Assembly (NCBI RefSeq): GCF_028368995.1
Contig: NZ_JAQNDL010000002.1
Coordinates: forward strand, 1,856,001-1,920,000
Length of the DNA stretch: 64,000 nt
Direction: 5' to 3'
DNA from: Nannocystis bainbridge
Lineage (GTDB): Bacteria; Myxococcota_A; Polyangia; Nannocystales; Nannocystaceae
A model generated the notes under the pieces. The model saw nothing but the letters and a program-made list of their open reading frames with translations. It was not told where the DNA came from and ran no database searches. Within the stretch, counting starts at the first letter, position 1; every line of letters begins with the position of its first letter. The translations under genes were made by a program, and so were the position numbers. Shown here piece by piece: positions 1,839-64,000 of this stretch.

Positions 1839-2396
1839 GTGAGCGGACCTATCTATGAAACGCTGCTCGAATTCAGCCGCACCCTCCGCGACGATCACCT
1901 CGACGAAGATCTTTCACGCATCGAGCTGCCCAACAACCGCGTGCTCGACACCCAGGTAATTCACGCCCGCGGCAAGCTCGACGGCCGCCCCGTCGTCGTC
2001 TCCTACCACTCGCACTGGATCGTCGGCTCCACCTATCGACCGCATATCCTCGAGGTCTTCGTCACCGGCAACCACCTCAAGACCGAAGCCGAGTGCCGCG
2101 CCCGCAGCTTCCTCGACGACGTGCTGCGGTGGTTCGGCGGAGGCGGCCTGCGCGGCCCCGACCCGATCTTCACCGAACGACGGATCGACGCCGCCAGGGA
2201 CGCCGACCTCACCGACCTCGACCGCCCCGAGTTCACCGCCCGCCTCGCCAACCTCAGCGGCCTCGTCTACTGCCACAAGGTCCAGATCCAGGCCGGCACC
2301 GGCATCAACGCCTGGTTCCACGCCCTCCCGTTCCAGCGCTCGCTGCCCCAGCTCCAAGCCCTCGTCCGCACCGTCGCCGACCTCGCATCCACATGA
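1839..2396 (+). CDS. Hypothetical protein (185 aa)
   Basis: GTG-start ORF with globular composition and GC-rich third positions; no family recognised. Confidence 0.65.
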   Translation: MSGPIYETLLEFSRTLRDDHLDEDLSRIELPNNRVLDTQVIHARGKLDGRPVVVSYHSHWIVGSTYRPHILEVFVTGNHLKTEAECRARSFLDDVLRWFGGGGLRGPDPIFTERRIDAARDADLTDLDRPEFTARLANLSGLVYCHKVQIQAGTGINAWFHALPFQRSLPQLQALVRTVADLAST

Positions 2397-2482
2397 CCGT
2401 ATCGACATGCTCTCGGAGACATTTTCGATAGGACATGTCCTATAGGACATTGTCCACACAACATGTCCTATCCGACACTCGA
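2389..2482. repeat. 14-bp-period array of the TGTCC-N4-GGACA palindrome (array 1)
   Basis: Junction tetramers (CATG or a variant) at 2392, 2406, 2420, 2434, 2448, 2462 and 2476. Perfect unit TGTCCTATAGGACA at 2436-2449. Confidence 0.85.
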
Positions 2483-2805
2483 TCGCGTCCCGAGCAACGT
2501 CTTCCACGCTGCCTAACTCACCCGAACCCAAGTCAGCGCATCGCATAGCGTCGCGTCTGCACCGAGCCGCGCCGCACATGTCCTATCCGACACTCGATCG
2601 CGTCCCGAGCAACGTCTTCCCACGCTGCCTGACTCATCCGAACCCAAGTCAGCGCATCGCATCGCATCGCATCACGTCTGGCCCGAGCCGCGCCGCACAT
2701 GTCCTATCCGACACTCGATCGCGTCCGAGTAACGCCCCCCTACGCCGCCTGACTCACCCGTACCAAGCCAGCGCCTCGCCTCGCATCTGCACCAAGCCGC
2801 GCCTC
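2461..2805. repeat. Tandem repeat of about 115-121 bp, 3 copies
   Basis: ACATGTCCTATCCGACACTCGATCGCGTCC starts at 2461, 2576 and 2697, with conserved downstream sequence (CTGACTCA..CCG, CCAAG..AGCGC, GCCGCGCC). Confidence 0.85.
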
Positions 2806-2816
2806 GCAAGCTCCCC

Positions 2817-2972
2817 ATATCGCCTCGGGCCTCGGCTAAAGCTCGCTGCGTAAGCTTTCCCTTCGTATCGCCTCGGGCCTCGGCGAAGGCTCGCCGGTCC
2901 CTTCGTATCGCCTCGAGCCCCGGCCGAGCCTCAAGCTCCCCCGCATCGCCGCGAGCCTCCGCGAAGAATCGC
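2817..2972. repeat. Degenerate tandem repeat of about 40 bp, 4 copies
   Basis: An (T/C)ATCGCC(T/G)CG(G/A)GCC core recurs near 2818, 2866, 2906 and 2944. Confidence 0.6.
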
Positions 2973-3181: not shown

Positions 3182-6100
3182 CTAGAACGGCTGCAAGAAC
3201 GTCAAATTCACCCCGACCCGCGGCAGCTGAAACTCCCCCGGCGCCACCCCTTGATACTCTGCCAGATAATCCGGCAGCACCTCATCGAGGCACGTCGAGC
3301 GTCGGCGGACCAGCGGCACCGCCACATCGAACCGGATGAACTGCGGCGTCACCCCCAGCAGCTGCAGGAAGGCCGTCACCCCGTAGCCGACCTGCCCGTA
3401 CCAGCTCTCCTTCCCGAACCACCCGCGCAGCGTATCGCACGGCGACACCGAAGCCGCCCCTGTGAACAGCGTCCCCCCGATCCCTCGCAGCCAGAACAGG
3501 TGGACCAGGTTCACATTGAAGTTCGACCAGAACATGTGCCGGTACTCGAGCTGCGCCAGCGCCACCCCGCGGCCGAACAGCTCGTTCCCCCCGTACGCTC
3601 CGAGCCCGTCGACCCCGCCCGCGCGCACCAGGCTGCGGAACTCCGGCCGGCCCATCAGCGGCACCATCATCGTCAGCTCGACCCGGCTCGCCAGCGTGTG
3701 TTGGTGTGCCAGCGGCCAGATGTGCACCCACGACGCCGACGCCGTCAGCCCGTGCCGGTGATCCGGCGCTGGCACCCCCGTGCGCAGCGTCTCCTGCGCG
3801 TACAGCCCGAACGCCAGCCGGTGCCCGCGATCGGGCCACAGGCTGAACTTGCGCGTATCGTCGATGATCGCCAGCGACTGGGCGAACCGCACCCCGCCGA
3901 CCCCGTCGAGCCCGCGCGCTGTCAGCGAGTGGACCTCGCCGAACATGCGCACCCGCCCGCGCCGGCGCCGGCGGTTGACCTTGTCGCCGAACCACACCGT
4001 CGCCCCGCCGCCGATCGCCGCCGCCGACTCGCGGTCGCGGTGCAGCTGCAGGTGGCCGATCGATCCGAGGTCGCGGCGCCGGCTCATCTCGAACAGCACC
4101 CGCCCTGACAGCGCCTGCAGCCGCGCCGCCGGCGTCTGCCCCGCCAGGAACTCCGACGCCGACACCTCGAAGCCGAACCCCGTGTAGACGAAGCGGAAGC
4201 TCGTCGGCGAGCGATTGTTGTAGAGCGGGTCGACGTTGCGCCGCGGCCCCTGCGGCTCCTCGAGCAGGCGCGTGCGCGGGTCGACCATCACCGAGCGCAG
4301 CTTGTGCTGCGTCTCGAGCGTGAACACATGGTCGATCGTACCTGACCCCGGGGACACCTCGTGATTGTTCCCCGACCCCAGCGACCCGTTCCACACCAGA
4401 TAGTGGCGCTGCCCGCCGCGCTCGGTCGCCAGCACCTGCACCGGCTCGACCGCCGCGTGCTCGCCTTCTCGCCGGATCGTGATCGTGTGCTGCCAGCGGC
4501 CGTCATCGAGCGGCACGCTGTCGACCTTCGCCACCGAGTAATCGACCGCCGGATAGGCCGCCAGCCACTGGTCGAAGAACCACCCGAGCGAGCGCCCGTA
4601 GGCCGCCTCGGCCGCGGCCACCGGGTCGCCGGTGCGGTCGCGCGCGACCCTGTCGTAGAACGCCTCGCGCTGGCCCGGCGTCAGCAGGTCGACCATCTTC
4701 TCGTGGATCCGGCGCCCGGTCGGCAGCGGGTGCGAGAAGAACAGCGGGTGCAGGCGCAGCGGCATGACGTCCTCGCTGCCGCGGAAGTAGCTCTGGGCGA
4801 ACGCCGCCTGGCCGGTGTAGAGGAAGTTGTCGACCATCGGCACGAACGTGATGCGCCGCAGGATGTCGCTGGCGAACTCGTCGCCCTGGGCCCGGCGGGC
4901 CCGCCACACGTCGAGCAGCGCCGTCGCCACCGCGTCGTAGAGCCACAGGTCGGTCGACGGATCGTGGCGACCCACATAGGCCCCGTACATGATCTCGTCG
5001 AGCATCGCCCGGGCCGCCGCCGCCTGATGAAAGCCCTGGAACCGCCGGCCCGGCGACACCTGGGCGAACTGATCGCTGACCAGCACCGCCGACGGGTGCG
5101 CCTGGGCGATCTCGGCCCGCAGCGGCCCCTGCACCACCGTCAGGCGGCTGTCGGGCGGCGGCTCCAGGCCGGCGATCGTGGCCACGTCGATCGCCTCGCG
5201 GGCGATCCGCAGCATGTGACCCGGCACGTCGCGATAAAGCTGCAACCAGCGCTCGTCGGGCACCTGATCGCCCGGGCGCCAGAACATGTGGAGCACCTCG
5301 ATCCGCACCCCGCGGTGGGTCTCGTGGGCCCGCTTCCACCGCGGGCCCCAGAACACCTCGGGGTACGCGACCTCGTCCGCCCCGACCGCCCCGCTGACGA
5401 CCACCACCTCGTCGCGCCCCAGCGCCTTGGCCTCGCTGGCCGTCGGGACATGTCCTGGAGACCATGTCGGAACCGCGGCGAACCGCGCGTCGACCGTCCA
5501 GCGCGCCGGCGTCACGATCCGCGCGTCGGGGTCGAGGCGCGCGCCGCCGCGGGCCGGCGCGCTCGGCAGCGGCGCCACCGCCCCGCTCAGGCTGCAGCGC
5601 CGGCGCGAGCAGCCGAACGGCCAGTAGCGGCGCGGCACCTCGACCGTGTACGCCAGCGTCAGCGTGTCTGTCCCTTCGGACATGGTCACCTCGACGTCGC
5701 GGCGCGCGTGGATCTGGCGGACCCGCGCCGCGCCGGTGTGCTCGCCGACCGTCAGCCGCCCGCGGTGGAACGGCCCGTCGAGGTAGTTCGCCTTGGCCAC
5801 CTCGTCGAGCTCGTTCGGCTCGCGCCCCAGCGCCTCGGCGAAGTTCAGCAGCACCAGCGTCTCGCCGGCGCGGGCCGGTCGGCTCAGCGTGTAGGTCGCC
5901 TCGCCGACGGCCGCCCCGCCTGCTCGCGGCACTCGCTTGCCGTCGGGCAGCCGCTCACCGCCTCGCACGACCTCGAGGCGGACCGCCACCGCCGTCACCG
6001 CGAGCGCGTCACTCGTCGGCGCCAGGTCCGTCGCCGGTCCGGTCGGCGGTTCCGCGTGAGCTTGCAGCGGCGAAAGGCCCGACGGATCTGAAGCGGCCTC

Positions 6101-6464: not shown

Positions 6465-8747
6465 ATGACGGCACAGGCTCGACCGCTGCCGGTCAGCGAG
6501 TGGCTCCGCGGCTTCACCCTCGGCCTCCTGGTCGCCGTCGGCTGCGGCCGCAGCGACTACCTCGGCCCCTGTGCCAGCGACGCCGACTGCGGCACCGGCT
6601 ACATCTGCGCCGCCGACGGCGTGTGCATCGAGGTCGGCGGCGAGTGCATCGTCGACGCCGACTGTCCTGACGGCGAGAAGTGCCTCAACTACGAGTGCGT
6701 CGGCCCGCAGGTGTGCGACGACAACCTCGAGTGCCCCCCGGGCACGATCTGCGTGATCCCCGAGGGCGAGGACATGGGCGTGTGCCAGGGCCCGCCGCCG
6801 ACCTGCCCGCCCTGCCCGGTCGGCACCGAGTGCGACGACAACGGCCAGTGCGTCCCGGTCGACCCGCCCGTCTGCCAAAACGACTTCGAGTGCCCCCAGG
6901 GCCAGATCTGCGTCGACGGCACCTGCACCGACCCCGGCGAGTGCGAGTTCGACTTCGAGTGCCCGTTCGAGCAGCAGTGCGTCGAGGGCCAGTGCGTCCC
7001 GGTCGGCTGCGACTTCTGCCAGTGCGAGAACGACTTCGACTGCCCGTTCGGCCAGGTCTGCGTCGACAACTTCTGCCAGCCGGAGTGCTTCAGCGACGAC
7101 CAGTGCCCGTTCGGCGAGGTCTGCCTCGACGGCTCCTGCGTCACCGGCGAGTGCACCATCGACCAGGACTGCCCGCCCAACGAGGTGTGCGAGAACGGCT
7201 TCTGCCAGGGCCAGTTCTGCTTCGACAGCACCGACTGCGACCCCGGCGAGCAGTGCATCGATTTCCAGTGCGTGCCCGGCGGCATGTGCCAGACCGACGC
7301 CGACTGCCCGCAAGGCACCGAGTGTGAGAACGGCGCCTGCGTCCCGATCGCCGGCTGCAACACCGACCTCGACTGCCCGCAGGGCCAGCAGTGCCAGGGC
7401 GGCGTGTGCATCCCCGGCCAGCTGTGCATGAACGACGCCGACTGCCCGCCCGGCGAGCTGTGCGTCGGCGGCGTCTGCTTCTTCCCGCCCGAGTGCATCC
7501 AGGACGCCGACTGCCCGGCAGGCCAGCTGTGCGTCGACGGCGACTGCCAGGATCCGCCGCCGCCGATCTGCATGTCGGACCTCGACTGTCCTCCGGGACA
7601 GGTCTGCAACCTGCAGACCCTGATGTGCGAGCTGTCGCCGCCGCCGCAGTGCATCGACAACGACGACTGCCCCGCCGGCCAGATCTGCGACGCCAACCAG
7701 CAGTGCGTCGACGCTCCGCCCCCGCAGTGCATCGACAACGACGACTGCCCCGCCGGCCAGATCTGCGACGCCAACCAGCAGTGCGTCCCCATCGTCCCCC
7801 AGTGCATCGACAACGACGACTGCCCGGTCGGCCAGATCTGCGACGCCAACCAGCAGTGCGTCCCCATCGTCCCCCAGTGCATCGACAACGACGACTGCCC
7901 CGTCGGCCAGATCTGCGACGCCAACCAGCAGTGCGTCCCCATCGTCCCCCAGTGCATCGACAACGACGACTGCCCCGTCGGCCAGATCTGCGACGCCAAC
8001 CAGCAGTGCGTCCCCATCGTCCCTCAGTGCATCGACAACGACGACTGCCCCGTCGGCCAGATCTGCGACGTCAACCAGCAGTGCGTCCCCATCGTCCCCC
8101 AGTGCATCGACAACGACGACTGCCCGGTCGGCCAGATCTGCGACGCCAACCAGCAGTGCGTCCCCATCGTCCCTCAGTGCATCGACAACGATGACTGCCC
8201 GGTCGGCCAGATCTGCGACGCCAACCAGCAGTGCGTCCCCATCGTCCCTCAGTGCATCGACAACGATGACTGCCCGGTCGGCCAGATCTGCGACGCCAAC
8301 CAGCAGTGCGTCCCCATCGTCCCTCAGTGCATCGACAACGACGACTGCCCGGTCGGCCAGATCTGCGACGCCAACCAGCAGTGCGTCGTCGCCCCGCCCC
8401 CGGTGTGCGTCGGCAACGACGACTGCGTCATCGACGAGGTCTGCATCGCCGGCACCTGCACCTTCATCGGGGACTGCCAGACCGACGTCCACTGCGCGAC
8501 CGGCCAGACCTGCGAGGCGGGCGTGTGCACCGGCCAGCCGCAGTGCACGACCAACGCCGAGTGCGCCGCCAACGAGTTCTGCCTGTTCGGCGAGTGCTTC
8601 GCGCCGAAGATGTGCGTGAAGAACAAGGACTGCGACACTGGCCAGGTCTGCGTGTTCGGCCTGTGCTCCGCCGGGGTCGAGTGCGCCGAGCATGCCGACT
8701 GCCCGGTCGGCCAGGCCTGCTTCGAGGGTCACTGCAACACCCTTTGA
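6465..8747 (+). CDS. Cys-rich repeat lipoprotein with many C-x2-D-x-D-C-P-x-G-x2-C-x3-4-C modules
   Basis: Lipobox LLVAVGC follows the ATG at 6465; the rest of the protein is tandem 4-Cys modules. Confidence 0.85.
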   Translation: MTAQARPLPVSEWLRGFTLGLLVAVGCGRSDYLGPCASDADCGTGYICAADGVCIEVGGECIVDADCPDGEKCLNYECVGPQVCDDNLECPPGTICVIPEGEDMGVCQGPPPTCPPCPVGTECDDNGQCVPVDPPVCQNDFECPQGQICVDGTCTDPGECEFDFECPFEQQCVEGQCVPVGCDFCQCENDFDCPFGQVCVDNFCQPECFSDDQCPFGEVCLDGSCVTGECTIDQDCPPNEVCENGFCQGQFCFDSTDCDPGEQCIDFQCVPGGMCQTDADCPQGTECENGACVPIAGCNTDLDCPQGQQCQGGVCIPGQLCMNDADCPPGELCVGGVCFFPPECIQDADCPAGQLCVDGDCQDPPPPICMSDLDCPPGQVCNLQTLMCELSPPPQCIDNDDCPAGQICDANQQCVDAPPPQCIDNDDCPAGQICDANQQCVPIVPQCIDNDDCPVGQICDANQQCVPIVPQCIDNDDCPVGQICDANQQCVPIVPQCIDNDDCPVGQICDANQQCVPIVPQCIDNDDCPVGQICDVNQQCVPIVPQCIDNDDCPVGQICDANQQCVPIVPQCIDNDDCPVGQICDANQQCVPIVPQCIDNDDCPVGQICDANQQCVPIVPQCIDNDDCPVGQICDANQQCVVAPPPVCVGNDDCVIDEVCIAGTCTFIGDCQTDVHCATGQTCEAGVCTGQPQCTTNAECAANEFCLFGECFAPKMCVKNKDCDTGQVCVFGLCSAGVECAEHADCPVGQACFEGHCNTL
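7645..8388 (+). repeat. Intragenic 75-bp near-identical tandem repeat, 10 copies
   Basis: PQCIDNDDCP(A/V)GQICDANQQCV(PIV) occurs 10 times; copies 2-10 have a 75-bp period (TGCATCGAC at 7728, 7803 ... 8328). Confidence 0.95.
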
Positions 8748-8965: not shown

Positions 8966-10288
<1,323 letters not shown>

Positions 10289-11351: not shown

Positions 11352-11367
11352 CCTCGACGCAGAGCCG

Positions 11368-12114
11368 ATGACCATCCGGGCGCTGATCGTCGATGACGAG
11401 CCGCTCGCGCGCGACCTCCTGCGCGAGATGCTGGCCGCGCACCCGCGCGTGGCCGTGGTCGGCGAGTGCCGCAGCGGCGCCGAGGCCGTGCGCGCGATCG
11501 ACCGGCTCGCCCCCGACGTCGTGTTCCTCGACGTGCAGATGCCGGAGATGAGCGGCTTCGAGGTCGTCGCGGCCGTCGGCGCCGCGCGCATGCCGAGGGT
11601 CGTGTTCGTCACCGCCCACGACCGCTACGCCGTGCAGGCCTTCGAGGTCCACGCGCTCGACTACCTGCTCAAGCCGTTCGACGACGCGCGCCTGGCCCGC
11701 GCGGTCGCCCGCCTCGACGCCGCCGGCGACGGCCTGGGCGCCCGCCTGGCCGCCCTGCTGGCCGAGCGCGCGCCGGCGCGGCCCGAGCGGCTGGTGATCC
11801 ACGACGGCGGCCGCGCGGTGTTCGTTCCGCTGGCCGAGGTCGACTGGATCGAGGCCGCGGGCAAGTACGTGGTCGTGCACGCCGGCGCCGCCAGCCACGT
11901 CCTGCGCGAGTCGATCTCGACCCTCGAGGCCGAGCTGGACCCGCGCCGGTTCGCCCGCATCCATCGCTCCACGATCGTGCGCGTCGAGCAGATCCACGCG
12001 GTCGAGACCCTGCTCGGCGGCGACTACGAGGTGGTCCTCCGCGACGGCACCCGCCTCACCACCAGCCGCGGCCACCGCCACCGCGTCCAGGCCCTGCTCG
12101 GCCGCCGCGGCTGA
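11368..12114 (+). CDS. LytTR-family response regulator
   Basis: Receiver motifs IVDDE, FLDVQMP and LLKP; LytTR motif FARIHRSTIV. Confidence 0.95.
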   Translation: MTIRALIVDDEPLARDLLREMLAAHPRVAVVGECRSGAEAVRAIDRLAPDVVFLDVQMPEMSGFEVVAAVGAARMPRVVFVTAHDRYAVQAFEVHALDYLLKPFDDARLARAVARLDAAGDGLGARLAALLAERAPARPERLVIHDGGRAVFVPLAEVDWIEAAGKYVVVHAGAASHVLRESISTLEAELDPRRFARIHRSTIVRVEQIHAVETLLGGDYEVVLRDGTRLTTSRGHRHRVQALLGRRG

Positions 12115-12273: not shown

Positions 12274-12364
12274 CGACATGCCCGCGAAGACATGTCCATC
12301 GCGCAATGTCGCAACAGACATGTCCCCGATGACATGCCCCTCGAGACATGCCCCCGGGGACACC
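12274..12364. repeat. 14-bp-period palindrome array (array 2)
   Basis: Junctions at 12277 CATG, 12291 CATG, 12305 AATG, 12319 CATG, 12333 CATG, 12347 CATG and 12361 CACC; lies between convergent genes. Confidence 0.9.
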
Positions 12365-12377: not shown

Positions 12378-15300
12378 TCAGCGCGCCGCCGCGACGCTCG
12401 GCTGCCCCTTGGGGAAGCTCCCGTACGAGAACAGCGACGCCGGGGCGACCTCGACCACGTCGGCGATCTTCTTCAGCCCCGCGAGGTCGACGCGCTCGCG
12501 GTTGCCGACCAGGCTGACGACCGGCGGCACCGCGGCGAAGCTCGACGCGAAGCCCTGCAGCTGCTCCTGCGTCATCGCCCCGATGGTCTGCCACACCCAC
12601 GGGCGCGGGTCGGTCTTCTCACCCAGCTCGTCCCACGCGTGGACCATCCACCCGCTCGCGCGCGGATCGACGCGGCTGCTGCGGTACTCCTGCTCGATGG
12701 CGGCGCGGGTCGAGCCCAGGCGCACGCTGTCGAGCGGGCGGCCGAGCAGCTCGAAGAACACCTTGAGCGCCTCCGAGGTCTTGTCCGACTGCGTGCCGAG
12801 CCCGCCGCGCAGCGCCCACGCGTCGGTCGGCCGCGAGCCGGCGAACAGCACGCCCCACGCGTAGTAGACCAGCCCTCGCGACTCGCGCATCTCCTGGAAC
12901 AGCAGCGTGTTCATGCCGCCGCCGAGGTACTCGCTGAGCATGCGCGCCGCCGGCCGCTGCTCGCGGGCCAGCGCGGCCGACGGCAGCGCCACCGCGATCG
13001 TCGACTTGGCGACGTCGCGGTGGGTGAAGTAGAGCGTCGGCTTCGGCACCTTGCGGTAGGCCACCGGCGGGCGCTGCGGCAGCTTGCGGTGCTGCTTGCC
13101 GAGCGCCACGACCTTGGCCGCCTCGGGCGCGGCGCGCGGGCCGAAGTAGAGGGTCTTGTGCTGGTAGTCGACGAACTCGCGCGCCAGGTTGGCCAGCGCC
13201 GCGGGCTTGGCCCCGACGATCTGCGCGTTGGTGGGGGCCTGCAGGTACTCGCTGTCCTTGCCGTGGATCGCGTAGTCGGCCAGCGCGCCGGCCAGCTCGT
13301 CGGGATCCTCGAGCGCGTCGCGACGGGTGCTGATCACGTTGTCGGCGATCCCGCGCAGCACCACCGGATCGATCTTCACCTCGCGCAGCCAGCGATCGAC
13401 CAGCGCCAGGCTCTGCTCCATGTTGGCGTCGACGCCCTCGACGGTGATGGCGCTCTCGTGAGCGCCGCACGCGAACTCGACGTGGGTGCCGAGCGCGAAC
13501 AGCTTCTTCTTCAGCGCCTCGGCCGACAGCTCGCCGGCGCCCGACTGCTCGACCACGTCGAGCGCGTGGCACAGCATGCGCTCGCGCTTGTGCCCGCGCT
13601 CGAACCGGTAGGTCAGCGAGAACAGGTCGTTGCGGCCGTTCTGGACCGCCACCAGCGGCCCGCCCGGCAGCTCGGCGCGCACGTAGTGGGTGCCCTCGAC
13701 CAACCACTCAGGCTCGATCGGCTTGGCCGGCCGCTTCAGCGCCGCCTCGGCGAACTGGCTGTGCCGCTCGGGGTGCAGCTCGACCGGCGTCAGCGCCGGC
13801 TTGTCGATCTTGGCCACCTCGGGCTTGCCGGCCTTCCGATGCACGGCGCTGAAGTTGGCGCCGAGGTACTTGTTGGCGACGCGCACGACGTCGTCGCGGG
13901 TGACCTCGCGGATCTTGCGATCGCGGGCGACCACGTCCTGCCACGCGCGGCCCTCGACGAACGCGTCGGCCATCTTGTGCGCGCGGAAGCTGTTGCTCTC
14001 GCGGGCGCGCTTGTCGGCGATGTCCTGGTTGAGCACGATCGCCGCCACGTCCTCGGCCGTGAACTCGCCGCGCTTGAGCTTGGCGACCACGCCCAGCAGC
14101 AGCGCCTCGACCTCGGCGTGGGTCTGGCCCTCGCGCAGCTGGGCGCGCGTCATGAACCACCCGGACTCGTGCAGGAACGTGCTGCTGGCCCCGGCCGACG
14201 GCACCTTCTGGCTCAGCTCGAGCTCGACGTTGAGCAGGCCGCTGGTGCTGTTGTCCATCAACCAGTCCATCACCGTCAGCGCCGGCTCGTCGGCGTGATC
14301 GGACGCGGTGGTCTGCCAGGCCAGCGCGACCTCCTGCTCACCCTCGGCGATCACGTCGGCCTGCACCCGCGCGGCGATCGGCTGCAGCGAGCCCGGATCG
14401 AGCTTGTCGAGCGCCCGCGGCTCGAGCTTGCCCAGCGCCTGCTCGAGCTTCGGCAGCGCGGTCGCGGCGTCGATGTCGCCGGCCAGCACGATCGCCATGT
14501 TGTTCGGCACGTACCAGCGGCCGAAGTAGTCGACCATGTCCTGATATGCCGGGACCTTGAGGTGCTCGATCTCGCCGATCGTCGTCTGCGTGCCGTAGGG
14601 GTGGCGCGGGAACAGATTGCGCGTGGTCGCGAAGTAGGTCCGCGCCCACGGGTTGTCGAGCGAGAGGTTCTTCTCCTCGTAGACCGCCTCCATCTCGGTG
14701 GTGAACAGGCGGAACACCGGATCGGAGAACCGCTCGCCCTCGACGTCGGCCCACACGTCGAAGCGGTTGCTCGGCACGTCGACGATGTAGACGGTCTGGT
14801 CGAACGAGGTGAAGGCGTTGACGCCGAAGATCCCGAGCTCGGCGTAGACGCGGTCGAACTCGTTGGGGATAGCGGTGGCCGCGACCTTCTGGTTGGCGGC
14901 GTCGAGCTCGGCGAAGATCCGCTGGCGCTCGGCCGGATCTTTGGTCGCCCGCAGATCGCGGTACAGCTGCTCGATGCGGGCCAGGTGCGGCGCCTCGGCG
15001 GCGTGGTCGAGGGTGCCGAGCTCGTCGGTGCCCTTGAAGAGCATGTGCTCGAGGTAGTGCGCGAGCCCGGTCGAGCTCGCCGGATCGGAGCGGCTGCCGG
15101 CGCGCACGGCGATCCAGGCGTCGAAGCGCGGCTTCTGCCGATCGGTGCTGATGTACACGGTCATGCCGTTGCTCAGCCGGTGCACCGAGACGGCCAGCGG
15201 ATCGCCCGCCAGCGCGGCGTGGGTCGGCGGCAGCGCGGAGGCGGCGAGGATGGCGTCGCGGGCCGCCGGAGCGCCGGCGGCCGCGGTCTCGCCGGGCGGC

Positions 15301-15383
15301 GTGGAGGTCGTGGAAGCGGCGGTCTTGCAGCCGACGGCGGCGAGGACAAAGGCGCCGAACAGGCGCGAGGCGAACGTGGACAT
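12378..15383 (-). CDS. M16 (insulinase/pitrilysin) zinc protease lipoprotein
   Basis: Lipobox LAAVGC; GLAHYLEHMLFKG (HxxEH), NAFTSFDQT and a second M16 half with EMRESRGLVY. Confidence 0.95.
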   Translation of the reverse strand: MSTFASRLFGAFVLAAVGCKTAASTTSTPPGETAAAGAPAARDAILAASALPPTHAALAGDPLAVSVHRLSNGMTVYISTDRQKPRFDAWIAVRAGSRSDPASSTGLAHYLEHMLFKGTDELGTLDHAAEAPHLARIEQLYRDLRATKDPAERQRIFAELDAANQKVAATAIPNEFDRVYAELGIFGVNAFTSFDQTVYIVDVPSNRFDVWADVEGERFSDPVFRLFTTEMEAVYEEKNLSLDNPWARTYFATTRNLFPRHPYGTQTTIGEIEHLKVPAYQDMVDYFGRWYVPNNMAIVLAGDIDAATALPKLEQALGKLEPRALDKLDPGSLQPIAARVQADVIAEGEQEVALAWQTTASDHADEPALTVMDWLMDNSTSGLLNVELELSQKVPSAGASSTFLHESGWFMTRAQLREGQTHAEVEALLLGVVAKLKRGEFTAEDVAAIVLNQDIADKRARESNSFRAHKMADAFVEGRAWQDVVARDRKIREVTRDDVVRVANKYLGANFSAVHRKAGKPEVAKIDKPALTPVELHPERHSQFAEAALKRPAKPIEPEWLVEGTHYVRAELPGGPLVAVQNGRNDLFSLTYRFERGHKRERMLCHALDVVEQSGAGELSAEALKKKLFALGTHVEFACGAHESAITVEGVDANMEQSLALVDRWLREVKIDPVVLRGIADNVISTRRDALEDPDELAGALADYAIHGKDSEYLQAPTNAQIVGAKPAALANLAREFVDYQHKTLYFGPRAAPEAAKVVALGKQHRKLPQRPPVAYRKVPKPTLYFTHRDVAKSTIAVALPSAALAREQRPAARMLSEYLGGGMNTLLFQEMRESRGLVYYAWGVLFAGSRPTDAWALRGGLGTQSDKTSEALKVFFELLGRPLDSVRLGSTRAAIEQEYRSSRVDPRASGWMVHAWDELGEKTDPRPWVWQTIGAMTQEQLQGFASSFAAVPPVVSLVGNRERVDLAGLKKIADVVEVAPASLFSYGSFPKGQPSVAAAR

Positions 15384-20944: not shown

Positions 20945-20961
20945 TGAGCCTCGGTCCCGGG

Positions 20962-26459: not shown

Positions 26460-26490
26460 ACGTCTCACCTGTCCTTGCGGACAGCTTCGC

Positions 26491-33979: not shown

Positions 33980-36379
<2,400 letters not shown>

Positions 36380-52400: not shown

Positions 52401-53704
52401 TGGCGCTGCGCTCGATGCGGCCCGAGGCCGATCCGCGGGCCTGGGACGCGCTGCGCGAGCGCGAGGCGATCCTGGCCGCGTGGGGCCGCCGGCGGGCCCA
52501 GGGCGCCGATCTTCGGGCGCTCTTGCGGCTCGCGCTCGGCACCAACGAGCGCGAGGTGTTCGCGCTCGGCCGCCTGCTCCGCTTCTACCTCGACTGTGGG
52601 CGCATCCAGCGGGCCCAACAATTGTTCCCGCGCCTGGCCCGTCAGACCGAGGCCCTGCCCGACGCCGACCCGCACCGCGGCCTCGTCGGCGAGCTCGGCT
52701 CGGCGCTGATGCTGGCGCGCGACCGGCCCGAGGAGGCCGAGCGCCTCGCCGCCGCCGGCCTGGCCCACTGCCCGCCCGAGGCCGCCGCCCAGCGCTGCCG
52801 CCTCCACGCCGCGTTGGGCCGGGCTCAGCTCGCGCAGGGTCGGCTGGCCGAGGCGGTGGTCAACTTCGAGGCCACGCTGCACCTGGCCCAAAAGACAGGT
52901 CTCCTGCGGCTCGAGGGCGAGGCGCTCAACAGCCTCGGCGAGGTCGCCGGCCGCGGCACCCGCTATCAGGAGGCGGTCGACTACTTCCGCGCCGCGCTGC
53001 AGGTCGACCGCGACCTCGGCGACCGGGCGGCGACCGGCACCAAGCTGGCCAACCTCGGCATCGTCTACACCGCGATCGGCCTCTATCGCCGCGCCGAACG
53101 CTACCTCCGCAAGGCGCTCGAGCTGCACGAGGCGATCGGTCACCCCGGCCTGCTGCTCGAGGTCGTCGTCAACCTCGGCGAGGTCTCGGCCGAGCACGGC
53201 GACGTCCAGGCCGCGCGCGCGCTGCTGCTGCACGCCGCCGACATGGCCGCCGCCCGCGGCGACGCCCGCACCGAGCTGCGGGCCCGCGCCCGCCTGGCCC
53301 GCGCCCTCGTCGACGGCAGCCCGCCCGACCTCGAAGAGGCCCGGGTCCTCGCCGAAGCCGTGCTGGCCCGCGCCCGCGGCCTCGGCCTGCGCACCGCCAC
53401 CTGTCGCGCGCTGCATGTCCTTTCGCGCCTGTCCGAACAGACAGGCGACCTCACGACCGCGCGCGCGCTCGAGGAGGAGGCGGTCGAGCTGGTCCGCGCC
53501 GGCGCGGCCCCGATCGACGGGGTGCTTTCGATCCACCACCTCGGCCACCTGCTGGCCGAGGTCCGCCCGGCCGAGTCGGCGGCCCTGCTCGCCGACGCCG
53601 CTGCTGCCGTGCGCGCCCGCCTCGAGGGCCTGCGCGACGAGGACCTGCGCCGCGGCTACCTGGCCCAGGCGAAGGTCCAGGAGATCCTCGGCGAGGCCGA
53701 GTGA
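49448..53704 (+). CDS. Ser/Thr kinase + degenerate cyclase-like domain + AAA/STAND ATPase + TPR protein
   Basis: GEGGMA, HRDISPHN, DFG, YMSPEQ; LYGRELEL, GGPGIGK, VVEDLH, TGGNPLF; C-terminal TPR-like repeats. Confidence 0.92.
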   Translation: MTPQIFGRYALIEQIGEGGMADVFLAEAGVAEGLKKRVVIKKIRSDVADQPEFMRMFVAEAEVALGLNHANIVQVFDFGRVGGAFYLAMELVEGVDLMRMVRLVGQRGERVPIVIAAYIAHQVAAGLAYAHAKRDDFGRPLAIVHRDISPHNIMLSLAGTVKILDFGIARTAAKARRDGGAEDSTIQGKIAYMSPEQANGWPLDARSDIYSLGVVLYELLTGELVFRDADRMAALEQVRTRPLPPLRRVAPEVPEVLAAVVDRALAREPAERWDSARAMQSALAAFLHRADPVVDDEVLSAFVAARVPEQLYDRGSGDAEVTRELEGSQSQLHAPPRPEVRRVVLLKAALAPALGVEDPLEPARFFALARDIAYKRDAQVSELGARGLLLVFGAVLDPGDVDEAALRAALALREAASEAAPGHQIGVVLAAAPLPIRHVPSGMPAVEVGHDLRRHLQTMADGVLDGPVLVAGDLAARLAGSWQFGPPRAIEVVRPRRAADLTGGVLPPWASALAQAVPLLGPVVAPRLVTVGGRQPLYGRELELKLLRDSFAEAIRARVARTVLVVGGPGIGKRALLDRFLAALPRGGCVVLRARGQWRRRNVPFGVFQEMLRQFLDAGPETTTADIESRLASERVVGAGELAQALARALGVSPGTGLNVHVRTDSDGAGDPRSRRERLWRPIRRLIRALAQRRPVLMVVEDLHFVDAHSLGLLHEWLQEPHSLPLMGLATARPGPRADELRALPGVHAIELRELDDHARRELVVRRFDDPAEAEELAAAIVARTGGNPLFIEETLAELLRRGVVGPGDDGRMWRVHQRGARIEVPPSVEDALLARLDALDPEARALIDGAAVLGLTFRTGELAALLQRPQAELVEPLAALVDAGLLERPPLPAGTPAAARFATLSLHEVARGNLSSGTCEGMHARAAELKAARADYQPGRDDGPIADHWAQARRPEAAIEPALRAARFARDVAGNVEAYYYLSLALRSMRPEADPRAWDALREREAILAAWGRRRAQGADLRALLRLALGTNEREVFALGRLLRFYLDCGRIQRAQQLFPRLARQTEALPDADPHRGLVGELGSALMLARDRPEEAERLAAAGLAHCPPEAAAQRCRLHAALGRAQLAQGRLAEAVVNFEATLHLAQKTGLLRLEGEALNSLGEVAGRGTRYQEAVDYFRAALQVDRDLGDRAATGTKLANLGIVYTAIGLYRRAERYLRKALELHEAIGHPGLLLEVVVNLGEVSAEHGDVQAARALLLHAADMAAARGDARTELRARARLARALVDGSPPDLEEARVLAEAVLARARGLGLRTATCRALHVLSRLSEQTGDLTTARALEEEAVELVRAGAAPIDGVLSIHHLGHLLAEVRPAESAALLADAAAAVRARLEGLRDEDLRRGYLAQAKVQEILGEAE

Positions 53705-54843: not shown

Positions 54844-57800
54844 ATGGTTATTCACATAAATAAGCCCGAGCGGATCGTGATCGTCGGTGGTGGCATGGCG
54901 GCCCTCACCACCGCCTTCGAGTTGACCTCGCGTCCCGACTGGCGCGAGCGCTACGACATCACCGTCTATCAGATGGGCCATCGGCTCGGCGGCAAGGGGG
55001 CCAGCGGGCGCGATCAGGAGCGCTTCGATCGCATCGAGGAGCACGGCCTCCACCTCTTCTACGGCTTCTACGACAACGCCTTCTCGGTCCTGCGCCGCTG
55101 TTACGACGAGCTCGCGCGGCCCGCCGGCGCCCCGCTGCGGACCCTCGAGGACGCGTTTCATCCCCACTCGCTGGTCGTGTTCGAGGAGCAGCGCGGCGGG
55201 CAGTGGCACCACCAGCCGCTGCTGTTCCCGCGCAATCACGAGCGCCCGGGCCTCGGCGCCGCCACCCCGACCCCGGCGGCGCTGATCCCCAAGATGCTCA
55301 CCTTCCTGCTCGATCTTTTCGACGAGCAACCACTGCTCAAGAACCCCGCCGCCACTCGCAGCGATCGCGCCGCGCTGCGGCTGCTGCGGCGCGGCGTCTC
55401 CGGCCTGCTCGGCGAGCTCGGCGAGTTCCTCCAGCGCCCCGGCGACGGCCTCGTGGTCGTGCGGCGCGAGGCCTTGCTCGGCCGCCTGCTCGCGTTCTCG
55501 CGCTGGACCTGGCGCCTGTGCGCGCCGCTGCTCGCTCGCCGGCCCGACCTGCGCGTCGCCTGGACCGCCGTCGACGTCACCCTGGCGATGATCCGCGGCA
55601 TGATCGCCGACCGCCTGGTCGAAGAGACAGCCGTCGACTGGCTCCGCCTCGACCACGAGGACTTCCGCGCCTGGCTGCGCCGCCACGGCGCCAGCGACGA
55701 GGCCGTCGCCGCTTCCACCGTCGCGGGCGTCTACGCCGGGGCCTACATGGCCGACCAGGAGCTCGGCGCCGGCACGGCCCTGCACTGGACGCTGCGCATG
55801 CTCTACACCTACCGCGGCGCGCTCTTCTACAAGATGCAGGCCGGCATGGGCGACGTCGTGTTCGCGCCGCTGTACCTGGTGCTGCGCGCTTGCGGCGTCA
55901 AGTTCCGCTTCTTCCACCGCGCCGACGCGCTGCGCCTGTCGGCCGATCGCAGCCGGATCGACGAGGTCGTGTTCGGGCGCCAGGTCGCCGTCAAGGGCGG
56001 CCGCGACTACGAGCCGCTCTACGACGTGAAGGGCCTGCCGTGCTGGCCGAGCGAGCCGCTCTACGACCAGCTCGAGCACGGCGACGCGCTGGCGCAGAGC
56101 GGCGAGAACCTCGAGGACTGGGGCACGCAGTGGCCCGACTCGCAGGAACCGCTGGTGCTCGCGGCCGGCCGCGATTTCGACCGCGTGCTGCTCGGCATCG
56201 GCCTCGGCGCGGTGCCGGCCCTGTGCGCCGAGATGATCGCCGACCCGAACAACCCGCGCTTCGCCGCGATGGTGCGCGCCGTCAAGACCACCCACACCGC
56301 GTCGGCGCAGCTGTGGTTCCGCGGCGACCTGGCCTCGACCGGCTGGCGCTTGCCGCCGCCGGTGATGATCCCCCACGCCATGCCGCTCGACACCTGGGCC
56401 GACATGAGCCACCTCCTGCCGCGCGAGAGCTTTCCGGGACATGTCCCTACGGCCAGCTGCGCCTACCTCACCGCGGCGATGGACGACGACGAGACGCCGC
56501 CGGTCCGCCGCGAGGACGCCGAAGGTTATTGCGCACGCCAGACCGCGCGGATCCGGACCCTGCTCGCGCAGCACCTGCGCACCAACAGCGCGCACCTGTG
56601 GCCGGCCGCGCAGAAGCCCGGCGGCGGCCTCGATCACCGCTGCCTCGTCACCACCGACGCCGGCGCCGATCCGCTCGACTGGCAGCACGTCAGCCCGTGC
56701 CTCAATCCGTCCGACCGCTACGTGCGATCGATCCGCGGCAGCACCCTCCATCGCCTCGACGCCGGCGCCTCCGGCTACGACAACCTGGTCCTGTGCGGCG
56801 ACTGGACCCTCAACCCGATGAACCTCGGCTGCGTCGAGGGCGCGACGATGTCGGGCATTCGCGCGGCCCAGGTCATCAGCGGCGAGGCCATCGCCCTGCA
56901 CGACGACTGGCTGGCCGCGCGCCACCCGGCCCTGCGCACGCCCGCGCGCGAGCGGCCGCGCTACATCCAGCGGGCGCTCAACGAGTCGACCTCGCCGCCG
57001 TACGAGGCGCGGGCCACCGCGATGTACGCCTCGGTCCTCGCCGCCGAACCCGAGCGCCTCGCCGACCTGTGCCAGCGTCACCTCGGCCTCAACCCCGAGC
57101 GCTGCTACCTCCCGCTCGGCCCCTCGGTGGTGTTCTACGCCCAGCACAACCACGCGCTGTCGGCCGTCGACGCGCCCGGCGTGGTCCCCGAGCGCGACTT
57201 CGGCTTCCTCGTCCCCGTCGCCGTGTGCGAGCGCCGGGCCGGCAAGCTGACGCCCGTCGGCGTCGCCGTCTACATGCCGTACCTCTGGGTCGACCTCGGC
57301 GCGGCGCTGCTCGGTGGGCGCGAGGTCCTCGGCTTCCCCAAAGGCCAGGCGACGCTCGGCTTCCCCGGCGCGCCCACCGGCGCCGTCGAGCTGCGCGTCG
57401 ATGCCTGGATGCCGCCCGCGAGCGGCCGCGGCGACGCCTGGCGCGAGGAGCGGCTGATCGACGCCCGCCTCGACGACAGCGCCAGGAGCCGCGTCCGCTC
57501 GCTCGCCGACGCCCTGCGCTCCGGCTTCGACCCCTCCTGGCTGGCCAGCCGCGGCGTCGACCTGGCCGGCCAGCTCTGCCTGCTGCGCGCCATCACCATG
57601 ACCCTTCGGACAGGTGGCCTGCGTATGGTGTTCCTCAAGCAGTACCGCGACGCCGCCGCCTGCGATCGCGCCTGCTACCAGGCGATCGTCGAGGCCCCGT
57701 GCACCCGCGCCGGCACCCCGCGCGTGGCGGCCCAGCTGCCCGGGGCGCTGCAGCTCCAGATCTTGCGCCGCTCCGGCCTGCTGGCGGAGCTCGGCCTGCG

Positions 57801-57906
57801 CACCAGCGGGGGCGACGCGGAGCGCGCCCGGGTGCCGGCGCTGGCGACGTTCTACACCGAGCTCGACTTCACGATCGGCGCGGCCGACGTGGTGTGGGCG
57901 GCCTGA
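54844..57906 (+). CDS. FAD/NAD(P)-binding oxidoreductase fused to an acetoacetate decarboxylase-like domain
   Basis: IVGGGMAA, RLGGKGASGR, IEEHGLHLFYGFY, LCGDWT and GCVEGATMSG; C-terminal PYLWVD..GGREVLGFPK and FLKQYRD. Confidence 0.85.
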   Translation: MVIHINKPERIVIVGGGMAALTTAFELTSRPDWRERYDITVYQMGHRLGGKGASGRDQERFDRIEEHGLHLFYGFYDNAFSVLRRCYDELARPAGAPLRTLEDAFHPHSLVVFEEQRGGQWHHQPLLFPRNHERPGLGAATPTPAALIPKMLTFLLDLFDEQPLLKNPAATRSDRAALRLLRRGVSGLLGELGEFLQRPGDGLVVVRREALLGRLLAFSRWTWRLCAPLLARRPDLRVAWTAVDVTLAMIRGMIADRLVEETAVDWLRLDHEDFRAWLRRHGASDEAVAASTVAGVYAGAYMADQELGAGTALHWTLRMLYTYRGALFYKMQAGMGDVVFAPLYLVLRACGVKFRFFHRADALRLSADRSRIDEVVFGRQVAVKGGRDYEPLYDVKGLPCWPSEPLYDQLEHGDALAQSGENLEDWGTQWPDSQEPLVLAAGRDFDRVLLGIGLGAVPALCAEMIADPNNPRFAAMVRAVKTTHTASAQLWFRGDLASTGWRLPPPVMIPHAMPLDTWADMSHLLPRESFPGHVPTASCAYLTAAMDDDETPPVRREDAEGYCARQTARIRTLLAQHLRTNSAHLWPAAQKPGGGLDHRCLVTTDAGADPLDWQHVSPCLNPSDRYVRSIRGSTLHRLDAGASGYDNLVLCGDWTLNPMNLGCVEGATMSGIRAAQVISGEAIALHDDWLAARHPALRTPARERPRYIQRALNESTSPPYEARATAMYASVLAAEPERLADLCQRHLGLNPERCYLPLGPSVVFYAQHNHALSAVDAPGVVPERDFGFLVPVAVCERRAGKLTPVGVAVYMPYLWVDLGAALLGGREVLGFPKGQATLGFPGAPTGAVELRVDAWMPPASGRGDAWREERLIDARLDDSARSRVRSLADALRSGFDPSWLASRGVDLAGQLCLLRAITMTLRTGGLRMVFLKQYRDAAACDRACYQAIVEAPCTRAGTPRVAAQLPGALQLQILRRSGLLAELGLRTSGGDAERARVPALATFYTELDFTIGAADVVWAA

Positions 57907-57917: not shown

Positions 57918-58058
57918 GGGCATGCCCTTCACGACATGTCCCCGTGCCCCCTGCCTGGAGCTAGTTCTACCGCCCGCCCCACATGGCACAAGGGGCATGT
58001 CCTCTCGAACATGCCCCTTCCAACAGGCCCTTTCAGACATGCCCTTTCGGACCTGTCC
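57918..58058. repeat. 14-bp-period palindrome array (array 6)
   Basis: CATG at 57921 and 57935; then 57982 CATG, 57996 CATG, 58010 CATG, 58024 CAGG, 58038 CATG and 58052 CCTG. Confidence 0.9.
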
Positions 58059-58064: not shown

Positions 58065-59795
<1,731 letters not shown>

Positions 59796-62089: not shown

Positions 62090-62300
62090 GTCCGGCCCAG
62101 CCTAAGCGGGCGGCGAGGCGCGGTCAACGCAGACAGGGCCCTGCCCGAGCGCCGCCGCCGCCGCCCGCCGGGCCCCGGCGGCGCTCGCCAGGGCGCCGCG
62201 AACGTGCATCCACTGCGCTGGCGCGTGCACGTCTCCACGTGCGGCACCTCCCTGGCGGGCCGACACGCGGTTCGGGGTCGTCGGGAGTAGGCTCCGCGCC

Positions 62301-63854
62301 ATGACCTCCGGGAGCCCTGTTTCGGTCGTGATCGGCCACACGATTGCCCTGCGCGACGTGGACGCTGTCGCCCGCCGCGGCGCCGCCGTCTCGCTCGCCG
62401 CCGAGGCGCGGGACGAGCTGCGACAGACGCGGGATCACCTCGAGCGAGCGCTGGCCGCCGGCGCGATCATCTACGGCGTCAACACCGGCTTCGGCGCCCT
62501 GTCCGACGCGAAGATCGCCCCCGACGAGCTCGGGATCTTGCAGCAGAACCTGCTGCGCAGCCACGCGGCCGGGGTCGGCCCGGCGTTCTCCGCCGACGTC
62601 GTGCGCGCCCTCTTGCTGCTGCGCGCCCACACCCTCGCGCTCGGGGCCAGCGGCGTGTCGCCCGGCGTGCCCGAGTTCCTGCTGCAGATGCTGGCCCGCG
62701 ATGTCCTCCCGGTCGTCCCGTGCCAGGGCAGCGTCGGCGCCAGCGGTGACCTGGCCCCGCTGGCCCACCTCGCCCTGGTCGCCATCGGCGAGGGGTTCGC
62801 CTGGTCCGAAGGACAGATCATCTCCGGCGCCGACGCCCTCGCGCGCGCCGGCCTGACCCCGCTGCGCCTCGGCCCCAAGGAGGGCCTGAGCCTCATCAAC
62901 GGCACCCAGGTCACCACCGCCGTCGGCGCGCTCGCGCTGTGCGACGCCGCCGAGCTGATCGCCGCCGCCGACATCCTCGGCAGCCTCAGCCTCGACGCGC
63001 TGCTCGGCACCGTCACCGCCACCGACCCGCGGATCCACGCCGGCAAGCCACACGTCGGCCAGCGCGAGAGCGCCGCCGTCTCGCGCGCCCTGCTCGTCGA
63101 CTCCCCGCTCCGCGCCTCGCACAGCGACTGCGGCGAGGTCCAGGACGCCTACGCCCTCCGCTGCATGCCGCAGGTCCACGGGGCCGCGCGCGACGCCCTC
63201 GCCTACGTCGCCGGCGCCGTGCAGGTCGAGCTCAACAGCTTCACCGACAACCCGCTGGTGCTGGCCCGCGCGGACGGCGGCTTCGACGTCCTCAGCGGCG
63301 GCAACTTCCACGCCGGCACCGTCGCCCTCCCGCTCGATCACATGACCGCCGCGCTCACCACCCTCGCCACCATCAGCGAGCGCCGCACCGATCGCATGCT
63401 CAACCCCGCGACCTCGCGCGGCCTCCCGGCCTTCCTGGCCGAAAGGCCAGGTGTCGAGAGCGGCCTGATGATGGCCCACGTCACCGCCTCGGCGCTCGCC
63501 AGCGAGTGCAAGTCGCTCAGCTTCCCCGCCTCCGTCGACACCATCCCGACCTCGGCCGGCAAGGAGGACCACGTCAGCATGGGCCCGATCGCCGCCCGCA
63601 AGCTGCGCAGCGTGGTCGACAACCTCGCCCGCGTGCTCGCCATCGAGGCCATCGCCGCCGCCCGCGGCCTCGACCTGCGCGGGCACCCGACCAGCGCCCC
63701 GCTCCAGCGCGTCCACGCGGCCATCCGCGCCCACGTCCCGCCGTGGACCGGCGACCGCAGCCCGGGCGGCGACACCGAGGCCCTCGCCGCCGCGATCCTG
63801 CGCGGCGAGCTGCGCCGCGCCGCCGAGGTCGCCTCCCCGCTCGATCGCGGCTGA
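62301..63854 (+). CDS. hutH: Histidine ammonia-lyase
   Basis: YGVNTGFG, NLLRSH, GSVGASGDLAPLAHL (MIO), KEGLSLING, QDAYALRC.PQVHG and EDHVSMG. Confidence 0.93.
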   Translation: MTSGSPVSVVIGHTIALRDVDAVARRGAAVSLAAEARDELRQTRDHLERALAAGAIIYGVNTGFGALSDAKIAPDELGILQQNLLRSHAAGVGPAFSADVVRALLLLRAHTLALGASGVSPGVPEFLLQMLARDVLPVVPCQGSVGASGDLAPLAHLALVAIGEGFAWSEGQIISGADALARAGLTPLRLGPKEGLSLINGTQVTTAVGALALCDAAELIAAADILGSLSLDALLGTVTATDPRIHAGKPHVGQRESAAVSRALLVDSPLRASHSDCGEVQDAYALRCMPQVHGAARDALAYVAGAVQVELNSFTDNPLVLARADGGFDVLSGGNFHAGTVALPLDHMTAALTTLATISERRTDRMLNPATSRGLPAFLAERPGVESGLMMAHVTASALASECKSLSFPASVDTIPTSAGKEDHVSMGPIAARKLRSVVDNLARVLAIEAIAAARGLDLRGHPTSAPLQRVHAAIRAHVPPWTGDRSPGGDTEALAAAILRGELRRAAEVASPLDRG

Positions 63855-63937
63855 GCAGCCGCGCAACGGCGCGCCCGGAGAGCGCATCACCGGGCAGTCA
63901 TTCATCGTGGCGCTCGCTCTCGTGTCGCCACACGAAA

Positions 63938-64000
63938 GGACATGTCCAGGCCACCCTGCCCTCATGGACATGTCCTTCTCGGCATGTTCCATTGAACATG
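63938..64000. repeat. 14-bp-period palindrome array (array 7, runs off the window)
   Basis: Junctions at 63941 CATG, 63955 CCTG, 63969 CATG, 63983 CATG and 63997 CATG. Confidence 0.88.

Follow-up and report, generated by a model that had tools for sequence, protein, structure and literature searches.

Dispersed palindromes of 12-16 bp that are read by dimeric proteins are known from the Noc-NBS, SlmA-SBS, MatP-matS, RacA-ram and ParB-parS systems, which have tens of sites and a pattern relative to the replication origin or terminus (ori/ter). The DNA uptake sequences (DUS) of Neisseria, the uptake signal sequences (USS) of Pasteurellaceae and Chi are asymmetric words, and DUS and USS occur in thousands of lineage-specific copies both in and behind genes. 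The described phenomenon closest to the one examined here is the highly iterated palindrome HIP1 of cyanobacteria. HIP1 (GCGATCGC) is described as 15- to 300-fold over-represented, present within and between reading frames, conserved between genomes, restricted to a lineage and unresolved in function (PMC5861425), and it has been tied to methyltransferases (PMC4390886, PMC13756078). Repetitive extragenic palindromes (REPs) are described as 20-40 bp long with a GTAG or CGTC end tag (PMC3733652). The present analysis concerns a 64,000-nucleotide stretch of the genome of Nannocystis bainbridge (C3:1856001-1920000; hereafter the window), in which an earlier note, made from the letters alone, had described a 14-bp palindrome, TGTCC-N4-GGACA, that is dispersed over the whole stretch and also forms phased head-to-tail arrays. 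Its copy number, position and conservation suggest, with moderate confidence, that the motif is the recognition site of an abundant two-fold symmetric protein of the Nannocystis lineage and that the arrays act as barriers at the ends of transcription units.

The source genome (G000) comprises 11,048,555 bases in five contigs with 71-72% GC, and the coding and intergenic labels used throughout are those of a self-written, crude codon-likelihood caller (7967 genes, 79-83% coding). All 12 perfect units listed in the earlier note were recovered in the window at the starts given there, compared with a mean of 0.03 and a maximum of 1 in 100 dinucleotide-preserving shuffles, none of which reached 12. 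Across the genome, 1987 perfect units were counted against 12.8 expected from 5-mer frequencies, a 156-fold excess, and in a screen of all 5-N4-5 palindromes a high count coincided with high enrichment only for TGTCC and its TGTCT variant. The form TGTCY-N4-RGACA is found at 2982 sites genome-wide, and the relaxed form TGNCY-N4-RGNCA at 6858, compared with 470 for a reversed control pattern. The half-site by itself is unenriched: TGTCC has 23,769 copies, and the median for equally composed 5-mers is 21,970. A relaxed partner 4 bp away, at +9, accompanies 7183 TGTCC copies, and an abutting partner accompanies 3512. Because the pair is enriched and the lone TGTCC is not, the enriched object is the dyad rather than the half-site. 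The sequence logo extends the core to R-C-M-TGTCC-YYRR-GGACA-K-G-Y, with neither a REP-type tag nor a T run after the site. By single-variant counts, the half-site has an almost invariant G1, strongly conserved T0 and C3, and changeable T2 and C4. The four central bases are not free of preference: relative to the intergenic background, the central dinucleotides AA/TT and GA/TC are over-represented 3.65-fold and 2.2-fold, respectively, and GC is reduced to 0.24-fold. TA is also favoured, and AC/GT, AG/CT and CC/GG, like GC, are disfavoured. This looks like a shape readout of uncontacted bases. The geometry is likewise found in ATGT-N8-ACAT (PadR) and 5-N4-5 (FNR-type) sites.

Several observations bear on whether the palindrome is read as double-stranded DNA or as a folded single strand. 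Variants confined to one half of the core are about as frequent as independence predicts, and compensated double variants were observed 25, 78 and 127 times where independence gives 20.6, 76 and 94, with a modest excess for one class (146 vs 60), and they have little advantage in frequency over uncompensated doubles. At the flank pair (-1,+14), 1651 of 2982 sites carry a Watson-Crick combination where 1367 are expected, and the mutual information is 0.038 bits, with a flank maximum of 0.05 bits. In tandem regions, combinations of the U.G and the C.A type on the sense strand are similarly frequent at position 4 (150 vs 159) and number 115/82 and 56/40 at the other positions, and coding sites show no consistent trend. 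No orientation of N4 relative to transcription was found. The earlier proposal that the motif is a double-stranded site for a dimer therefore gains indirect support from the independence of the half-sites, the lack of strand asymmetry, the enrichment of the pair only and the spacer preference. These properties are those expected of a double-stranded DNA site for a symmetric dimer and not of an RNA hairpin or a REP element.

The second defining property is phase. Genome-wide, CATG-CATG distances of 14, 28, 42, 56 and 70 bp occur 3736, 2073, 1586, 751 and 383 times, compared with ~70-130 times for nearby distances that are not multiples of three and ~260-320 times for those that are; the peaks anticipated at 14, 28 and 42 are thus present and are joined by one at 56. 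The preferred flank CA...TG allows two sites to share a palindromic CATG, which yields the 14-bp period and the junction decamer GGACATGTCC. Junctions matching this decamer at 8 or more of 10 positions number 12,834, compared with 2517 for a control word, and 713 phased chains of at least three such junctions were counted, 617 of them intergenic, with arrays reaching 8-10 units. The decamer also fits the form RRRCWWGYYY, which is the p53 half-site consensus; this is taken as coincidence. Two neighbouring spacers of an array have 1.39 of 4 bases in common, compared with 1.11 for spacers paired at random; since neighbours are thus scarcely more alike than random pairs, recent slippage was rejected as the source of the arrays. 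In the window, all seven arrays named previously are present; their C[AC][TG]G centres follow one another at intervals of 14 bp or multiples of it, apart from a few irregular steps (such as 18 and 71 in 20704-20900; 15, 4 and 28 in 57918-58058). According to the crude gene calls, all seven are intergenic, as had been stated, and lie behind the 3' ends of genes, four of them between convergent genes.

The same association with gene ends is seen throughout the genome. A total of 1942 of the 2982 sites are non-coding (0.95 per kb), and 1040, about a third, fall in called genes (0.116 per kb). Sites are densest in convergent intergenic regions (2.08 per kb), followed by tandem (0.92) and divergent ones (0.37). 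Of the 1316 convergent regions, 757 (57.5%) contain one or more relaxed units, as do 1042 of the 3827 tandem and 278 of the 1470 divergent ones, compared with 1-2% for the control pattern. The first unit behind a gene mostly starts between -3 and +40 from the stop codon, and in 115 cases the stop codon TGA itself provides the first three bases of the unit. In tandem regions of at least 450 bp (n=665), density declines from 2.7 per kb beside the stop to ~0.5 per kb at 175-300 bp, where the next start is no closer than 150 bp. In divergent regions, the 125 bp directly preceding a start hold 0-0.3 per kb. Moreover, other perfect 8-bp hairpins number 0.95 per unmasked kb in convergent regions with at least two units, compared with 1.98 in those without units. 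The share of genes with at least two 3' units rises from 9% to 27% across quintiles of rising native codon usage. On the scale of the chromosome, density is roughly even along all five contigs (~23-33 per 100 kb), and the proposed mapping against ori and ter gave no clear pattern: dnaA (C1:4353122-4353607) lies at the C1 skew switch within a site-dense region, and the C3 skew switch shows only a mild dip (16-18 per 100 kb) that is equalled elsewhere. Site density correlates with GC (r = 0.49), and the poorest 50-kb bins (C1:1.10-1.30 Mb, C2:0.75 and 1.85 Mb, and others) hold 1-3 sites, with a GC of 0.68-0.70, atypical codon usage and a small share called as coding under the native codon model; these site-poor, low-GC bins are probably acquired islands.

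The dispersed units are not confined to intergenic DNA, and in this respect the initial description of the motif, accurate for the arrays, does not extend to the single units: 8 of the 12 perfect units in the window are in reading frames and 4 are intergenic. Across the genome, 725 of the 1040 sites in called genes have a host-frame third-position GC content (GC3) above 0.85 on both sides, which identifies them as truly intragenic. The 1040 sites split among the three frames as 507, 438 and 95, and the frames that avoid rare codons are favoured. Coding sites number 1023, compared with 23-30 in five synonymous-codon shuffles that keep the proteins (~38-fold) and 8-11 in codon-order shuffles. 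The excess over synonymous shuffles indicates that the motif is written into genes via codon choice.

The motif is also conserved and restricted to a lineage. Exact copies were counted in the source genome and 40 relatives, which are kin, such that counts across genomes are not independent. In the ten other Nannocystis genomes, all of which carry the motif, copies number 1550-2090 in five large assemblies and 114-959 in five smaller ones, roughly tracking assembly size and clade. Two sister genera of the family carry fewer (G013, 161 copies with 1 for the control; G011, 87 with 10), and each of the remaining 27 relatives has 0-8. A search of sequencing runs for expression data turned up soil, wetland and root metagenomes only, none of them from a culture. 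Those G013 sites that were inspected are solitary and often intragenic, at about one per 50 kb and without arrays. A 200-kb sample of G011 yielded no analogous motif of comparable density, and the G013 sequence examined for one, 41 kb, was too short for a judgement. A repeated element common to two G013 contigs, L065 and L069, carries a perfect site close to one of its ends (...GGACATGTACATTCTTCC...), and the adjacent open reading frames (ORFs) of 493, 270 and 184 amino acids have no Pfam match.

Within the genus, the protein encoded at the lon locus is 95% identical to those of Nannocystis radixulma, N. exedens, N. punicea, N. pusilla and Nannocystis sp. RBIL2. Five species align to the window at 89-93% identity, and the alignment breaks fall exactly at the array-bearing intergenic regions. 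The array behind lon is present in all six core species and was not found in the more distant Nannocystis metagenome-assembled genomes. In a four-species alignment of this array, the invariant columns are essentially CATG every 14 bp plus an outer G and C, mean column identity is 63% and the spacers differ; whole units seem to have been gained or lost between species. The claim that phase and half-sites are conserved and the remainder is not, which had been made by comparing units and arrays within the window, thus also holds between species. For example, at unit 51430 the half-sites are largely kept in five species and N4 differs in every one (GAAC, GTCA, GCCA, GTTC, GCCC, GATC). At position 52191, the five other species have CTGGCC...GGGACA; the unit arose there by base substitutions, which rules out an in-frame mobile-element insertion for this traced gain. 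For the species furthest from the source genome among the five (~89% genome identity), a comparison along an entire 730-kb contig gave, for 32 fully aligned coding sites, an identity of 0.944 in the core compared with 0.844 in the spacer and 0.835 in the flank. The motif is retained at 27 of 39 aligned coding sites and at 10 of 17 aligned intergenic sites, most intergenic sites being unalignable. Among orthologous intergenic regions, 37 carry units in both species, 12 and 6 in one only and 91 in neither; since the species are kin, shared descent contributes to this agreement.

The arrays and single perfect units of the window are as follows, none being assigned a strand.

2389..2482: phased array that overlaps the stop codon of gene 1839..2396(+) and contains the perfect unit 2436-2449; centres at 2392, 2406, 2434 and 2462.
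12274..12364: phased array that fills the convergent gap between a LytTR response-regulator gene, 11368..12114(+), and an M16 peptidase gene, 12378..15383(-); relaxed units at 12279, 12335 and 12349, with steps of 14, 28, 14 and 14.
20704..20945: two sub-arrays in the convergent gap between an Oxidored_FMN gene, 19248..20720(+), and gene 20962..21825(-).
30319..30370: short array, its four centres 14 bp apart, behind gene 30574..31668(-).
36384..36477: array between the convergent genes lon, 33980..36379(+), and a TPR gene, 36631..40479(-), found at the same place in the five named Nannocystis species.
57918..58058: array that fills the convergent gap between gene 54895..57906(+) and a Ser/Thr kinase gene, 58065..59648(-).
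63938..64000: array cut by the end of the window, downstream of an aromatic amino acid lyase gene, 62328..63854(+).
21825..21838: isolated perfect unit, lying at the start called for gene 20962..21825(-) and classed as intergenic.
26470..26483: isolated perfect unit in the convergent gap between an Omp85 gene, 24905..26236(+), and a SurA-like gene, 26491..27705(-).
5669..5682: perfect unit inside gene 3182..5998(-).
7587..7600: perfect unit inside a Cys-rich DUF7107 repeat gene, 6465..8747(+).
39675..39688: perfect unit inside the TPR gene 36631..40479(-), retained by each of the five other species examined.
39799..39812: intragenic perfect unit with an abutting TGTCC, kept in all five other species examined.
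51402..51443: two intragenic perfect units, 28 bp apart, in a kinase-AAA-TPR gene, 49448..53704(+).
52191..52204: intragenic perfect unit, found in this genome only.
58547..58560: perfect unit inside the Ser/Thr kinase gene 58065..59648(-).

Some neighbouring features of the window deserve mention in their own right. A tandem repeat of 116/121 bp follows immediately on the first array (2461-2787; 2.8 copies, 85-88% matches), and each of its copies opens with a motif-like unit, ACATGTCCTATCCGACA. The pair formed by a LytS-type histidine kinase and a LytTR response regulator (10290-12114) ends right at the array 12274-12364, with no link to the motif seen; LytTR proteins bind direct repeats. The gene 6465..8747 contains a 75-bp repeat (7647-8387; 9.8 copies, 97% identity) and encodes a Cys-rich DUF7107/Dickkopf_N-like protein, and an FG-GAP repeat protein (8864-10288) has a weak TcdB_toxin_midN match at 24.7 bits against a cut-off of 24.8 bits. 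The region 46392-46490, upstream of the dprA-like gene 46491..47303, is 99-384 bp long across six Nannocystis species and contains no motif units.

In the favoured explanation, the recognition site would be TGTCY-N4-RGACA in double-stranded form, extended to C-M-TGTCC-N4-GGACA-K-G, with one subunit per half-site. The nearly invariant T, G and C of TGnC would be read by that subunit, and the centre of N4 would be left uncontacted and read indirectly through the shape of the DNA. Neighbouring 18-bp sites would overlap in the CATG flank, such that a row of dimers could coat an array, with a turn of ~120 degrees between successive dimers. The arrays, which begin at or close behind stop codons and occupy most convergent gaps, would then form nucleoprotein barriers, whether as insulators, roadblocks or topological barriers, and the ~1000 single intragenic sites may be weaker anchor points of the same protein that are kept by selection at the level of DNA. 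We infer protein binding, its cooperativity along arrays and a function of that binding from the sequence patterns described above, and the barrier role in particular is suggested by the start of units at stop codons, the occupation of convergent gaps, the avoidance of promoters and the partial exclusion of other hairpins. Among the roles put forward earlier (organisation, insulation or segregation), these positional features point to insulation at gene ends rather than to segregation. A more far-reaching version, of rather low probability, is that transcription-unit ends in these bacteria could be marked by a protein and not by RNA, with a polymerising dimer that would provide bidirectional roadblock terminators, insulators and supercoil barriers and would partly replace hairpin terminators, and with the intragenic sites of the same protein organising the nucleoid.

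Several points weigh against the explanation by a binding protein and array barriers. First, all evidence for binding is statistical, and no binder was found or shortlisted: the proteins of the window offer only the LytTR regulator and a weak HTH_20 match, and neither the ORFs at the G013 repeated element nor the ORF beside one G013 site gave a candidate. Second, the ~1000 conserved sites inside genes sit uneasily with a barrier role. Third, the 3' bias, the link to native codon usage and the link to GC would also be expected if sites merely accumulate with residence time where they are least harmful. Fourth, some arrays fold far better than shuffled sequences, with z scores of -4.87 and -4.87 (36380-36480, both strands), -2.86, -2.47 and -1.24 in five folds, and among the 1942 intergenic sites 54 have at least seven extra base pairs where 3.9 are expected, and 131 have at least five where 40.7 are expected. 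A minority of intergenic units thus belong to real long palindromes and, taken together with the strong array folds, these long inverted repeats indicate that hairpin formation may matter for a subset of sites. Fifth, the relaxed pattern includes false positives, as in the repeat gene 6465..8747, where TGCCCCGTCGGCCA words code for Cys-Pro-x-Gly-Gln. Finally, every division of sites into coding and intergenic inherits the crudeness of the gene caller.

Four rival explanations were weighed. An unlikely one, although the most probable of the four, is that the motif is an iterated palindrome like HIP1, kept or generated by a methyltransferase, by repair or by recombination, or having a diffuse role in chromosome structure, with no protein coat and with its position reflecting tolerance alone. 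The phenomenology matches in the 156-fold excess, the encoding by synonymous choice and the conservation; atypical islands of lower GC lack the motif, as this explanation would have it, and copy number is graded over the lineage (87 and 161 in the sister genera, then 114-959, then 1550-2090). The two methyltransferase classes that were searched show no correlation with the motif, however. C5 methyltransferase had 0 matches in the source genome, and just 3 of the 10 further Nannocystis genomes have one; the D12 class occurs in 34 of 41 relatives regardless of the motif (the N4/N6 beta and gamma classes were not searched). C5 methylation with short-patch repair was rejected as a source on the first of these grounds, and D12 because it is uncorrelated with the motif. 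Moreover, exact 14-bp phasing, starts at stop codons and avoidance of promoters demand more than tolerance.

It is less probable still that the motif is a self-recognition signal for a DNA uptake, defence or recombination machine, like DUS/USS or Chi, by which DNA of the own lineage is preferred or spared. Thousands of lineage-restricted copies in and between genes, concentrated behind genes, would suit such a signal, as would their scarcity in compositionally foreign islands; a dprA gene is present in the window, though dprA is widespread. Against this stand the strict dyad with its unenriched lone half-site, unlike the asymmetric words of those systems, and phased arrays of up to 8-10 units, which have no counterpart in them; the literature searched also holds no competence data for this organism. 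Double units were not found in viral contigs, a result that is uninformative since the source genome itself holds only 16 of them.

A slightly poorer account, and a quite improbable one, is that the units act as hairpins of RNA or single-stranded DNA, serving as terminators, mRNA stabilisers or substrates of a REP-associated tyrosine transposase (RAYT). The bias towards 3' ends and convergent regions, the folding of the arrays with their excess of long stems, and the lower number of other hairpins where arrays occur are all in keeping with this account, and in the lon array two adjacent non-consensus decamers are reverse complements of each other in three species. On the other hand, the pairing stops at the 5-bp core in 762 of 1942 intergenic sites, long stems are not in excess among coding sites, a third of the sites are intragenic, and at least one unit arose by substitution. 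As a general explanation, an RNA hairpin or tetraloop was rejected for the unoriented N4, for the absence of a G.U versus C.A asymmetry and for the 0 matches in the window from Rfam. A REP/RAYT system was rejected for the lack of stem covariation and for the missing Y1 transposase, for which the Y1_Tnp/RAYT search (PF01797) gave 0 matches in the source genome (90.5% complete) and was positive in 6 of 14 control genomes.

Least probable is a regional chromosome-organising system of the Noc/SlmA/MatP/ParB type that marks territory for division-site selection or segregation, a kinship the earlier note had drawn. A 14-bp palindrome dispersed in and between genes and the 161 solitary sites of G013, at ~one per 50 kb, recall such systems in form and number, but copy number in Nannocystis is ~100 times theirs, density is even with no clear ori/ter pattern, the genome has a single ParB_N match (TetR- or MatP-type candidates were not searched) and the positioning at stop codons is left unexplained. 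That ParB_N match (C3:1147646-1147930) lies ~350 kb from the C3 skew switch that is read as the terminus, with dnaA at the other switch, which is unusual if the skew reading is right.

If a protein does read the motif, as the explanation by a symmetric binder would have it, it would have several thousand selected sites, and to the best of the authors' knowledge no bacterial sequence-specific DNA-binding protein has as many. The arrays would then represent a kind of gene-end element distinct from hairpin terminators and REPs, and the motif would be a second independent case, beside HIP1, of a palindrome selected genome-wide. In practical terms, the motif is a sharp lineage signature for Nannocystis DNA, flags foreign islands and deserves attention when these natural-product producers are engineered.

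With respect to known systems, no description of the motif in Nannocystis or other myxobacteria was found in the literature searched, which leaves out most subscription journals and supplements, in keeping with the initial impression that the sequence is undescribed; as far as found, the split dyad, the exact phasing and the gene-end positioning of an iterated palindrome are likewise undescribed. The motif shares with the Noc, SlmA, MatP, RacA and ParB sites the form of a short dispersed palindrome, and it differs from them in having thousands of sites and no ori/ter pattern. Compared with DUS and USS, only the dyad is enriched and phased arrays are present. Like REPs and bacterial interspersed mosaic elements (BIMEs), it is palindromic, present in high copy number, concentrated behind genes and often clustered; REPs, however, act as hairpins, whereas the Nannocystis motif has a core stem of 5 bp, no RAYT, tag or stem covariation, and a third of its sites inside genes. 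Two further likenesses are analogies of mechanism only. The phage 434 repressor and Cro bind 14-bp operators with an uncontacted centre, and the Nannocystis motif is likewise a 14-bp dyad in which the central bases matter though they are not conserved. The met-boxes of MetJ and the heptads of omega are arrays for ribbon-helix-helix proteins, and the exactly phased tandem boxes seen here could similarly take abutting dimers. These systems nevertheless comprise few promoter operators, in contrast to thousands of promoter-avoiding sites, and the motif permits no assignment of its putative reader to a family. HIP1 remains the nearest relative in kind, being a short, hyper-abundant palindrome that is both intragenic and intergenic and is conserved, but it is a contiguous octamer, and we know of no phased arrays of it. 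The Nannocystis motif is a split dyad with a free N4, it forms 14-bp arrays and starts at stop codons, and it has no correlated D12 or C5 methyltransferase. Unlike HIP1, it has a positional signature, comprising stop codons, convergent gaps and a 14-bp phase, through which its function can be tested directly.

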